Below are positions 1 through 3,000 of a DNA stretch of 33,994 nucleotides, one piece after another. The position numbers were made by a program. This stretch comes from a virus (taxonomy: Duplodnaviria > Heunggongvirae > Uroviricota > Caudoviricetes): IMG/VR virus record IMGVR_UViG_2802429242_000009, positions 1 through 33,994 of that record. One strand, 5' to 3'. Every line of letters begins with the position of its first letter. Position 1 is the stretch's first letter.

Positions 1-3000
1 CTCAACACGCAGCTTCCCTACCGTTAGCGCAATTTCCTCGTTCTCCTGGTCGCGGGATTTGATGTATTGCTGGTTTCTTTCCCGTTCATCCAGCAGTGCC
101 AGCACTACTTCTGGGTTGAAAGCTGCGATATAATGAGCGTTGTTCTCTGCGTTTTTCTGTCCATCAAAGCCGGTCCATTTGATAACGTCTTCACATCGTT
201 TATCACCGGGCGTATGCACCGCATACGTACCAGTACCCGTCGAAATAAATGCAACCCATTCGCCTTGTGTTGCCAGTTGCGCCGCCTCACGCAGTGCCTG
301 ATAGTCAATCTCGCTCACTGGTTGCCTCCTTTGCTCGCTGATTCCACTCTGCTCTAACCTCTGAATAAAAAATCGCGCAGTCATTTCCAGGCGCTGCATA
401 TTTGCTACCAGATTGAGCGCGACACGTACCGCATCGAACGAAATAGAATCGACCGCCAGAGCCATATTCAGGGTGATCTGCTTCGCTGGCAACGTGCGCT
501 GCGCCGCCACAGAATGGACATGGTAGTAGGTTGCTCATGAATGCACTCCCTCGTGAAGCTGTTCCGCACAATGCAGCAGGGCGTCAGTCGCCTCTTTCAC
601 CGTAACGCAGTCGCCATCGTCCAGCCCGGACACCGACGCGTGCTTAACGAACGCCGCGCAAAGGTCATCAAAAGCCTTAGCCCGGACTTCAGCCAGGAAA
701 GCATCGGTGGCTGGGGTGTCTGATTGCATAGACTTTGCGCGATAGTCATTCCACCCTCTTGCATACATGGGATTAACTTGCACTCCATCTTTTACGCAAT
801 ATGCCTGCCCTCCACGGTTGATAACCTTGATTTCGTCCATAGCGCCAGACTTCAGCCCCGCATTCTCCGCCGCCAGCGCCGAAAACTTCTCGTGTGCCAA
901 CTTAACAGCCGAATCAGCCTGCTTAATTGACTCAATCGCTTTTTGGTGGTCTTCGGACAGAGCCGAAATCTTGGCCTCCGCTTCAGCAAATTTACGCACC
1001 AGATATTCAGCGTTTGTTTCGTTAACTTTTAAATCTCGTGGGATGCATTTACCTTTCAGAAAACCATCCATCTCAATTAGTGACATTTGTTTCATTTCTT
1101 CCCACTCCGCCACATCGCATTCAGATATTTGTTTTGATTTACTGATGGAAAAGAATTTCTCTTAAGCAATTCCTCTCTCTATGGCATTGGCTTTACGCGT
1201 TGGCGAATAATCATTTCTGCCGGAAGAATGCCGGGATTGTATGCAAGTCCTCTCATGGTAAATTCCTCAGTCATTACTGATAGCGCCATAGCGTGAGCGG
1301 TAATTACGCAGGCGCGGGTCGATATATTCAGGGAAGTGGGTATATGTGGCTTTGCGGAATGGTCGGATTGATGTCTGGTAAATTCGATCGCGTTCTTCTT
1401 TCTCTGCAAGCCATATACAGTGGCGAAATTCCTTTTCCTCTTTCGTTTCCTGCGGTAGCAACATTATCAGGTCGTAGTTTTTTCTGAATTTATCCAGCAA
1501 CTCCGATACGGAATTGCCGGAACAGCGGCGCGGGTCATCCGCACCATACAGAGGCGCTGGCATGGTTTTCTCCTGATTAAATTGCGTGAATAGCGTGACG
1601 AGGGAAGGGGAGAGTTACTGGCTCCTCGTCTGGGTAGATAGGTTTGTTATGTTTGTGCCACTCGACATGACATGACTTGCAGAGCCACATCACATCGGTT
1701 GGTTTGCTGTAGTCGCAGTGGTGCGCCTGTGGTTTACATTCTGATCCGCAGCACTCACATTGTGGTGGTCGGATTAGCTTACCGTCGCGCAAAAAATTAC
1801 CCACGATGATGTGGGCTTTTCTTTTCCATGGGTTGCTCTGAATGAACCGCTTTTTGGCTGCGTTACACCGTTCTCTGCCGCGTTCCGATGATTGATATTC
1901 TCTCCTTGCTGATACTCGATGTGGCAATCCCGCGCGCTCTTTGTCGTATTCAGCCAGGCAAGCCCGGCAAGCGGCAGTTAATCCATCTCTGGATGCTCTT
2001 CTGATTTGAAAGTCCCTTTCTTCCTTCTGTTGATGGCATCTTGAGCAGATTTTCATATTCAGCTCCTAGAACGGAATATCCGAATCGTCGAAGTTCATAG
2101 GTGGTTCGCTGTGATTTCCCTGCTGCTGAGGTTGCTGTCTTTGTTGCTGACCGTTATTTCGCTGAGGTGAAGACTGTTCATTGCCTCCTTGCTTGCCACC
2201 AAGCATTTGCATGGTTCCACCAACGCCTACGATAACTTCGGTAGTGAACCGATCCTGTCCGCTTTGATCCTGCCATTTTCTTGTCCGCAATTTGCCTTCA
2301 AGATAAACCTCTGAGCCTTTTCGCAGATACTCGCTGGCAATTTCTGCCAGTTTCCCGCTCATTACCACACGGTGCCACTCCGTCTGCTCCTTTTGCTCTC
2401 CAGTTTGCTTATCACGCCATTGTTCTGACGTAGCAACTGTAAGGTTTGCAAATGCCGTTCCTGATGGTGAATATCTGATTTCTGGATCATGCCCAAGGCG
2501 ACCAATAATGATCACCTTATTTACGCCTCTGATTGCCATTTATGCCGCCTGTTTTAGTTCGTTAACTCTGATGTTCATTACCTGAACGCATTTAGCCTGC
2601 GCCTCCTCGTTTCCAGCCATTAATTGCCAGTCACGCTGATAACGCTCGATGAGTTTTTTCTTATCAGTTTCTTTCGATGCATAATCGCTGAAGTCTTTCA
2701 GGATTTGTTCGCAGTCAACCGATGGAGATTTCTGGTTGGTATTTTCTGGTGATGGTTTGTTATCTGATGCTGGGATTGCCCATACCGGCAGCGATGGAGG
2801 GAGCCAGTAAAATCCTGTTCCATCCTTCAGTTTTGCCCTGTGCCACCCCTGCTTTTTATCGAGAGATGTTTGTGCGAAACCTTCCTCAAGGTTATACAGA
2901 TACCGACCGATTCCCCACTGAACGGCAGCACGCTTCATTGCACCTGAACGACCACCTTTGACGGCTTCTACCTGCGTGTTTTCAGCAGCGTCCCATTTGG

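Follow-up and report, generated by a model that had tools for sequence, protein, structure and literature searches.

What does an HNH nuclease gene do in the recombination module of a lambdoid phage? The question arises in a tailed-phage sequence of 33,994 nucleotides (nt) (Caudoviricetes; IMG/VR record IMGVR_UViG_2802429242_000009, positions 1–33,994; 'the window' below means this whole stretch). On its minus strand, a gene for a 159-residue protein lies between ssb, which encodes the phage single-stranded DNA-binding protein (SSB), and the anti-RecBCD gene abc2, and a gene for a Lar-like zinc-ribbon protein lies further downstream in the same early-left (pL) operon. An initial annotation, made from the sequence alone, had described the two as nuclease and anti-restriction cargo.

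We propose that the product of the HNH gene is most likely a homing endonuclease of the free-standing kind and not an enzyme dedicated to recombination. We read it in this way because of its relatives, its presence or absence at a single junction, its linkage to a recoded ssb tip, the different HNH genes that compete for that junction, its recurrence in Vibrio phages and its maintenance as an intact gene. For positions 1–3247 as a whole, sequence comparison on balance favours, with considerable reserve, the view that they form the middle and distal portion of an early-left operon under N antitermination, in a temperate phage that is a P22/Sf6-like mosaic. It would comprise a recombination module and small accessory genes of the exo-xis/ea type, in which Abc2 would disarm RecBCD, the HNH gene would be a homing cassette and the Lar-like protein would modulate type I restriction-modification.

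The HNH protein and its family

The initial annotation had named the 159-aa product an HNH endonuclease. As far as family profiles go, the name was not upheld: no HNH model in Pfam or NCBIfam matched the protein (E≤0.1), its 32 close relatives or 49 distant relatives, and PF01844 touched only two of all these relatives, at E 0.68. Searches of PDB sequences, with phmmer and with a profile built from alignment A1, gave chance matches only, and a Foldseek search of the protein's model against PDB structures returned nothing significant, with Cap5 and McrA among the fold hits.

Other evidence sustained the assignment itself. The family shares the motif C100-x2-C103, A-H112-H113-x-D-Y, W-L-C126-x2-C129-H130-x3-H134, together with a second four-cysteine ribbon at the N-terminus. 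Across 82 relatives, C100, C103, H112, H113, C126, C129, H130 and H134 vary little or not at all. The AlphaFold2 (AF2) model (predicted local distance difference test score, pLDDT, of 93) has a beta-beta-alpha core formed by strands 110–113 and 122–125 and helix 127–136, on which the motif residues lie, with a His where the first strand ends, His in the helix and flanking CxxC pairs predicted to bind zinc; the rest consists of two zinc ribbons and a helical linker, with no sensor or partner domain. A Foldseek search of BFVD, which contains predicted structures of viral proteins, returned 32 hits with E≤1e-3; those that have a name are mostly HNH, HNHc or EndoVII. With hhalign, the motif aligned to the HNH motif of McrA. 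From the conserved motifs, the model and its viral fold neighbours, the 159-aa protein is a predicted HNH nuclease.

The family, typified by gp26 of Shigella phage Sf6, numbers 63,085 representative clusters (E≤1e-3), a very large total, and is spread over many unrelated phages and gene contexts, yet it is missed by both Pfam and NCBIfam. The window protein is homologous over its full length to KsaII (hhalign probability 99.7%, E 7e-27), which is encoded in a group I intron of polA in Staphylococcus phage Staph1N, one of the K-like viruses (PMC5618024). In RefSeq/PGAP the 159-aa frame was left unannotated in the three full-length E. coli matches examined (H81–H83) and in strain SRY149 (L003 5376–5877). 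Its N-terminal zinc ribbon (residues 1–69) matched phrog_5558, 'Lar-like restriction alleviation protein' (7.5e-7); this is probably generic zinc-ribbon similarity and could mislead annotation. In three database proteins (P0011, P0014 and P0024) either the SSB OB-fold runs in frame into the C-terminal half of the HNH protein (for example ..TTEVIVG|NFLRDG..) or the HNH protein runs into an Rv2179c-like exonuclease; these fusions look like short-homology deletions.

Variation at the junction of ssb and abc2

As the initial annotation had said, the HNH gene is adjacent to ssb: it begins 9 nt past the ssb stop codon, has its own ribosome-binding site (RBS) and leaves a 13-nt gap before abc2. The further claim, that an HNH gene in the recombination module is atypical for a P22-like phage, did not hold. 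The same placement is seen in Sf6, the whole module recurs in IME10, N7, Bas106 and Huey, and an E. coli prophage has the same gene order. Of 5,426 complete E. coli genomes, 98 contain at least 80% of the gene; of 80 viral contigs from IMG/VR that were chosen solely for a similar ssb, 34 carry it. HNH enzymes are one of the four types of nuclease that a survey of enterobacterial lambdoid phages (314 phages; published in 2025) records for recombination modules, and the survey finds the ES18-type module, with anti-RecBCD protein, SSB, nuclease and single-strand annealing protein (SAP), in 25 of them (PMC12315714).

In HK75 and ECP1, abc2 follows ssb directly and there is no HNH gene; 36–39 of the 80 contigs were likewise classed as cassette-free. 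The last 45–56 nt of the HNH gene are nevertheless kept in HK75, ECP1, 39 cassette-free IMG/VR loci and about 300 E. coli genomes that match no more of the gene than this, where they are read as part of ssb. At these loci the 3' end of ssb reads ..GATTTTGACGACGATATACCCTTTGCACCAGTAACT.. and SSB ends ..DDDIPFAPVTLPFPRHAIHAI*, with a 15-residue extension (..DDDIPF-APVTLPFPRHAIHAI*; seen in L005, L006 and L040–L079). The shared tail accounts for the remark in the Sf6 record that gene 26 and 'E. coli SSB' have 14 residues in common. The C-terminus is the part of SSB that recruits partner proteins, which normally bind its free tip. In the HNH-less phages the 15 residues of APVTLPFPRHAIHAI come after the conserved ..DDDIPF tip.

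Carriers differ from this pattern precisely at the ssb tip. In every carrier with a readable tip, SSB ends ..NFDDSDIPF*, the result of at least five substitutions and an extra TCG codon that are completely linked to the HNH gene. When the 34 carriers were compared with 39 non-carriers, all seven near-fixed differences fell at ssb nt 445–471, its last 27 nt, and none in the preceding 744 nt. Identity to the window over the last 39 nt of ssb (final codons and stop) was 100% in carriers and 84.4% in non-carriers, while over its first 430 nt the median was 97.7% in both. A few loci (L039, L043, L083) show shorter, reciprocal or recombinant conversion tracts.

The junction is also occupied by more than one kind of gene. 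Three different HNH genes were found there: the gp26 type, a 47%-identical P0022 type and an unrelated PF13392 HNH_3. Contig L009 has HNH_3 between SAP and ssb and the 47%-identical gp26-family allele after ssb (3060–3527 and 4001–4468), and L087 has HNH_3 after ssb (2010–2531). In some relatives a gene for an Rv2179c-like 3'-5' exonuclease (PF16473, 2.8e-73) precedes abc2, following either ssb or the HNH gene (L042 2025–2573; Bas106, L002 4354–4902), which brings the junction states to four. The window's type of HNH gene is maintained where it occurs, with 33 of 34 reading frames intact and a ratio of nonsynonymous to synonymous polymorphism (pN/pS) of 0.16. Among these alleles, one has the nonsense change Q10* and two have H113Q, in the predicted catalytic His pair (L034, L025 and L026; gene at 1984–2463).

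We considered whether the HNH-less alleles could be simple deletions of the HNH gene and judged this less likely, given the diverged tail in a 75%-identical SSB (L092) and the greater diversity of HNH-less tips. The comparison suggests that the ssb tail predates the HNH insertion.

A similar pairing recurs in unrelated phages. In Vibrio phages D174 and K66, ssb is followed by a 43–53% identical HNH gene, and in Vibrio phage K228 a 27% identical one lies directly upstream of ssb. K66 has cassette-free relatives, and its HNH stop codon coincides with the old ssb stop; in the carrier-less Vibrio relative examined, SSB ends ..EPPF. In D174 a 9-nt insertion with a stop codon splits DD|DIPF (L093 7340–7385), at the position where the enteric carriers have the extra TCG.

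Two details of the Vibrio sequences may be recorded here. The ssb gene of D174 reads ..DFDDD-RS-stop and then, in frame, GAC ATC CCG TTC TAA (DIPF*), the SSB tip thus being cut off upstream of the gp26-family HNH gene. In K66 (L095 2430–2465) the sequence ATTCCGTTC occurs a second time 4 nt past the ssb end ATTCCGTTCTGA, apparently through a short duplication where the cassette joins.

The comparison shows which genes are present, assigns the protein to HNH at the level of the fold, and establishes both the polymorphism and its link with the ssb tip; from these we infer a route of spread in which cutting, copying of the cassette by repair and immunity of the tip are all conditional. The cassette would consist of a replacement ssb 3' tip (..DDSDIPF and stop), a 9-nt spacer with the gene's own RBS, and an HNH frame that ends in what is the ssb 3' extension of cassette-free phages. 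On co-infection, or with a related prophage present, the enzyme would cut a cassette-free ssb 3' end of the HK75/ECP1 type near ..GACGACGAT|ATACCCTTT... The break would be repaired from the cassette-bearing genome, aided by the phage SSB, annealing protein and Abc2, and the cassette would be copied in along with a short conversion tract. The recoded ssb tip would then shield carriers from their own enzyme. In the literature searched we found no earlier description of a free-standing homing endonuclease next to ssb in lambdoid phages.

The Lar-like protein and competing explanations

The initial annotation had placed the 77-aa zinc-ribbon protein in the Lar family, and profile searches agreed: it scored 38.5 bits against PF14354 (gathering score 28.6; residues 3–69 on profile positions 2–58 of 58) and also matched phrog_599, and PF14354 was present in 15 of 15 close homologues. 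Proteins 97% identical to it carry the database name 'Lar family restriction alleviation protein'. It fell below the cut-off of TIGR03655, the narrower Lar subfamily in NCBIfam (29.4 vs 39.6 bits). The motif CPFCG...CxxC...WNxR is common to this protein, RalR (= Lar) of the Rac prophage and Sf6 gp20; with both of these included, C7, P8, F9, C10, G11, C36, C39, W65 and R68 are invariant and N66 nearly so. In the AF2 model (pLDDT 84.7) a ribbon of three strands is followed by a helix at the C-terminus (55–76). A PDB sequence search found no solved structural relative.

Translational coupling of this gene to its upstream neighbour, a gene for a 186-aa protein, had also been proposed, and the arrangement of the two genes bears it out. 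The Lar ATG (538–536) overlaps the TGA (537–535) of the 186-aa gene as ATGA, with the Shine-Dalgarno sequence GAGGGAG 7 nt upstream, and the identical 4-nt overlap is kept in Sf6 gp21/gp20 and in the E. coli SRY149 prophage. On these grounds the Lar-like gene is predicted to be coupled. Its own end overlaps the GTG start of the Ea22-like gene at the window edge by 14 nt.

Judged by family membership alone, the Lar-like protein most likely modulates type I restriction-modification early in infection or induction. Rac Lar is the family's founding restriction-alleviation member (King and Murray, 1995, as cited in PMC4041452); the same protein, as RalR, has been reported to be a Ca/Mg-dependent non-specific DNase held in check by the small RNA RalA (PMC4041452). 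No RalA-like RNA was found in the window, which ends about 300 nt downstream of the Lar-like gene, either by an Rfam scan or by direct blastn with ralA, which gave chance matches. D-series Vibrio phages have a 50% identical Lar-like gene and a 53% identical gp26-family HNH gene within 3 kb of each other, as in the window (L093 4440–4781 and 7449–7886), which may be coincidence or may point to a shared early-gene pool.

Several points weigh against a homing endonuclease encoded beside a Lar-type modulator. The literature searched contained no cleavage, homing or restriction-alleviation experiment on these proteins. No conserved Asn was found where the H-N-H motif has its canonical one, the corresponding positions being D121, V122 and M123; the HNH family is known to include variants that lack it. 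Conservation does not set the HNH gene apart from its flanks (98.8% vs 97.7%). Gene-boundary mosaicism is general in lambdoid phages, and presence or absence alone is no proof of homing; the recoded ssb tip could be a matter of descent, having travelled with the donor module; and the conserved adjacency of ssb and HNH genes in distant phages also fits a functional partnership between SSB and a nuclease. The Lar-like protein is distant from Rac Lar, to our knowledge the only tested member of its family. Tightly packed HNH genes have, moreover, been counted as probable members of recombination modules (PMC12315714). Taken as a working nuclease of the module, in a role like that of lambda Exo, RecE or P1 Ref, the HNH protein would make or process ends for SSB and the annealing protein while Abc2 blocks RecBCD. 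Its tight packing between ssb and abc2 with a separate RBS, the standing of HNH as the fourth nuclease type in lambdoid modules such as the ES18 type, the SAP-ssb-HNH order in Vibrio phage K66 and the purifying selection on the gene all speak for such a role. We nevertheless regard it as somewhat unlikely: the gene is absent from about three-quarters of the matching E. coli genomes, from half of the sampled viral contigs and from the HK75 and ECP1 modules, unrelated HNH genes replace it at the junction and another lies between SAP and ssb in L009, its closest characterised relatives are (by annotation) intron-encoded, and the linked recoding of the ssb tip is left unexplained. The homing and recombination readings are not mutually exclusive; a break-making homing enzyme would also stimulate recombination. 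An offensive or defensive nuclease, acting in superinfection exclusion or degrading host or competitor DNA, would suit a prophage-borne early gene, as HNH domains are common defence effectors and Cap5 and McrA were among the fold hits. This we think highly improbable, since PADLOC models of defence systems matched none of the five proteins searched, the HNH protein included, the model has no sensor or partner domain, and the polymorphism centres on one insertion site.

The same weighing applies to the Lar-like protein. The initial annotation saw in the region a cargo in which this protein alleviates type I (EcoKI-type) restriction and the HNH gene is an oddity for a P22-like phage. The Pfam score above threshold, the conserved motif, the database name, the founding role of Rac Lar as cited in PMC4041452 and a location downstream of recombination genes that matches recET-ralR in Rac make this possible, but as a whole we find it doubtful: identity to Rac Lar/RalR is 26% over 42 aa, the protein lies below the NCBIfam Lar cut-off and the activity of its subfamily is predicted by family alone, the arrangement is not unusual, and Abc2, the region's real anti-nuclease factor, was overlooked. 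We consider it quite improbable, at a clearly lower level, that the protein is instead a DNase toxin like RalR, belonging to a type I toxin-antitoxin pair and with no part in anti-restriction. The reported DNase activity of RalR and its restraint by RalA would suggest this, as would the conserved Asn of WN(K/Q)R, motif positions being known to affect RalR toxicity (PMC4041452); against it stand the failure to find a RalA-like RNA in the window, of which some 300 nt lie beyond the gene, the position of the gene as a coupled member of a long phage operon rather than as a stand-alone unit, and the low identity to RalR.

Returning to homing, a wider proposal, which we offer as speculation and rate as unlikely, is that the gp26-type HNH genes form a homing lineage targeting the 3' ends of phage ssb genes, at the codons of the acidic ..DDDIPF tip, in enteric lambdoid and unrelated Vibrio phages alike. 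Each invasion would rewrite the SSB C-terminus and so switch its engagement with partner proteins of host and phage. If this were true, the SSB tip of carrier-less enteric phages would be buried under the 15-residue extension, while carriers of the Sf6 and K66 types would have a free canonical DIPF end. The change that the HNH insertion makes to the SSB C-terminus is a modest addition and offers a natural experiment. For this HNH family, the place inside 'recombination modules' is probably a trace left by a selfish element, which matters for the classification of phage recombination modules by gene content.

The surrounding operon and known systems

The initial annotation had put the region at the distal end of the pL operon, and the map supports its promoter-distal location. 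The genes for kil, cIII, an N-like antiterminator (5577–5945) and a cI-like repressor (6416–7063) lie upstream on the minus strand, which puts the region in the middle and distal portion of the leftward early operon. In order of transcription (3247 to 1) the genes encode the Rad52-like SAP, SSB, the HNH protein, Abc2, a DUF2737 remnant, the Ea22-related 186-aa protein, the Lar-like protein and an Ead/Ea22-like protein, separated by short gaps or overlaps; the TAA stop codon of the SAP gene abuts the ssb ATG.

Table 1. Features of the early-left region of the window, in order of transcription, with the evidence for each.
Feature	Position	Strand	Evidence and remarks
Rad52/Erf-like single-strand annealing protein (SAP) gene	2540–3247 with stop (coding 2543–3247)	−	235 aa; PF04098 5e-26; phrog_1097 1.6e-129
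ssb	2066–2539 with stop (coding 2069–2539)	−	157 aa; PF00436 1.7e-38; TIGR00621 1.6e-53
ssb last 27 nt and stop codon, recoded tip; presumed homing target or co-conversion tract	2066–2095	−	carrier/non-carrier comparison
Predicted HNH (His-Me finger) zinc-ribbon endonuclease gene	1577–2056 with stop (coding 1580–2056)	−	159 aa; same protein sequence as Sf6 gp26
Last 15 codons of the HNH gene (..PVTLPFPRHAIHAI*), right-hand cassette junction	1577–1621	−	alignments A2, A5
abc2	1267–1563 with stop (coding 1270–1563)	−	98 aa; PF11043 5.6e-61; phrog_656; PDB 8B1T 8.5e-56
DUF2737 gene, amber-truncated to 25 codons	1179–1256 with stop (coding 1182–1256)	−	PF10930 3.5e-13, profile positions 1–25 of 53
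186-aa Ea22-related gene	535–1095 with stop (coding 538–1095)	−	phrog_614 1.3e-59
ATGA overlap, stop of 186-aa gene and start of Lar-like gene	535–538	−	read from sequence
Lar-family zinc-ribbon gene	305–538 (coding 308–538, stop codon 305–307)	−	77 aa; PF14354 38.5 bits; phrog_599 1.3e-12
Ead/Ea22-like gene, first 106 codons, continuing past the window edge	1–318	−	PF13935 6.3e-33; phrog_250, phrog_368

Three features had escaped the initial annotation: Abc2, the amber-truncated DUF2737 gene and the Ea22 relationship of the Lar-like gene's upstream partner. Abc2 matched PF11043 over positions 1–97 of 97 (203 bits) and, along residues 1–98, the full length of P22 Abc2, whose structure bound to RecBCD has been solved (PDB 8B1T, chain A). 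The role of P22 anti-RecBCD protein 2 is summarised in PMC12315714; the window's Abc2 would bind RecC and disarm RecBCD, and on sequence grounds abc2 appears to be the best-founded anti-nuclease function in the region. The Chi sequence GCTGGTGG is absent from both strands of the window, with about one copy expected by chance, so its absence is not significant; it is consistent with the scarcity of Chi sites in lambdoid phages that carry an anti-RecBCD gene (PMC12315714). The DUF2737 gene is cut short by a single C-to-A difference from Bas106, HK75 and ECP1 (alignment A3) that turns codon 26 from TCG to TAG (1179–1181), and the remainder of the old frame (about 1092–1178) is intact. In relatives the stop codon of DUF2737 and the start codon of the gene that follows share an ATGA, and the amber codon may weaken coupling to the 186-aa gene in the window.

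The Ea22-like protein that the initial annotation had noticed at the window edge was confirmed (114.7 bits against PF13935, threshold 27; residues 2–106 on profile positions 1–105 of 139). The 106 N-terminal residues lie within the window, the gene has a GTG start (318–316) with AGGAGG upstream, and PGAP calls its homologue an 'ead/Ea22-like family protein'. The 186-aa gene had no Pfam match. Alignment with Bas106_0028 indicates that it likely starts at the ATG at 1095, where a mechanical open reading frame call would begin at the GTG at 1113. Its residues 44–191, the C-terminal two-thirds, matched phrog_368 at positions 86–238 of 239, and the N-terminal part of phrog_368 matched the edge gene; two Ea22-family relatives thus flank the Lar-like gene. 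The 186-aa protein appears to be an N-terminus without assigned function fused to a C-terminal part related to Ea22-family proteins. We rejected the idea of one Ea22 gene split by the Lar-like gene, as the C-terminal-like part lies upstream and the N-terminal domain downstream, the wrong order for a split.

Elsewhere in the window are P22-like terminase, portal, coat and tailspike genes. A search with positions 9000–33994 found no phage record covering at least 80% of them, which makes the sequence a new mosaic built from known modules. Two tRNA genes, tRNA-Asn(gtt) and tRNA-Thr(tgt), at 13795–13950, upstream of the packaging genes, are the sole Rfam matches in the window. An O-acetyltransferase gene (32885–33994; phrog_3333 5.2e-72, and more weakly phrog_6705, 'O-antigen acetylase', 2.6e-22) follows the tailspike gene (31018–32814) and runs off the window end, a location that resembles that of the serotype-converting oac in Sf6. 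Positions 3795–4763 encode a 322-aa homologue of Sf6 gp33 with a highly charged centre rich in Glu, Lys, Ala and Arg; in a related prophage PGAP names it 'TolA'.

The region is a known set of modules that can mostly be read off the genome of Sf6 (Casjens et al., 2004; NC_005344), and to describe it is routine annotation of accessory genes in a lambdoid phage; what is modestly new, beyond what was already known, is the reading of the HNH gene as a mobile element, with the change that this brings to the SSB C-terminus. Sf6 genes 28–20 run in the same order (SAP, SSB, gene 26, abc2, DUF2737, Ea22-like, Lar-like), with about 98% nucleotide identity over 1108–3300, a 100% identical gene 26 protein and the ATGA in the Ea22/Lar pair. 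They differ in having two extra genes (24 and 22) between abc2 and Ea22, an intact DUF2737 in place of the amber allele, and a Lar-like gp20 that is another allele, 33% identical to the window protein. The genome paper of phage L contains nothing on Lar-like or HNH genes. Experimental evolution of Sf6 is uninformative on the dispensability of these genes because deletions arose only in the nin region (PMC5630979). The ES18-type modules of lambdoid phages likewise have an HNH gene packed among SSB, SAP and anti-RecBCD genes in the early-left operon; where the authors of that survey (PMC12315714) count such genes as probable members, with a warning about mobility, our allele comparison favours mobility.

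Small HNH proteins of tailed phages also include the terminase-associated gp74 type of HK97-like cos phages (Kala et al., 2014, as described in a citing paper), but the window's HNH gene lies 15 kb from TerS and TerL (17058–18997), belongs to another sequence family and accompanies packaging genes of the P22 type. The gene upstream of TerS (15560–16078) encodes a Rha-like regulator, not an HNH protein. P22-like phages package DNA by a headful mechanism, and such packagers are not known for a terminase-adjacent HNH gene.

Rac Lar/RalR (E. coli K-12 b1348) shares with the Lar-like protein the small CPFCG...CxxC zinc ribbon and the C-terminal WNxR helix, and is likewise encoded downstream of recombination genes in a leftward early operon. 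In the window protein 13 residues are inserted in the ribbon and the loop leading to the helix is longer; the low identity, the score under the TIGR03655 cut-off and the lack of a detected RalA partner are further differences, already described. A close parallel for the HNH gene is with HNH homing endonucleases of the I-KsaII type. The predicted two zinc ribbons, helical linker and HNH core align along the full length of both proteins, each a putative endonuclease, and they differ in that the window's gene is intergenic, not intron-borne, and gives its upstream gene a new 3' end. With phage HNH homing endonucleases in general it has in common presence or absence at a fixed site, changes close to the target and several endonuclease genes competing for one site.

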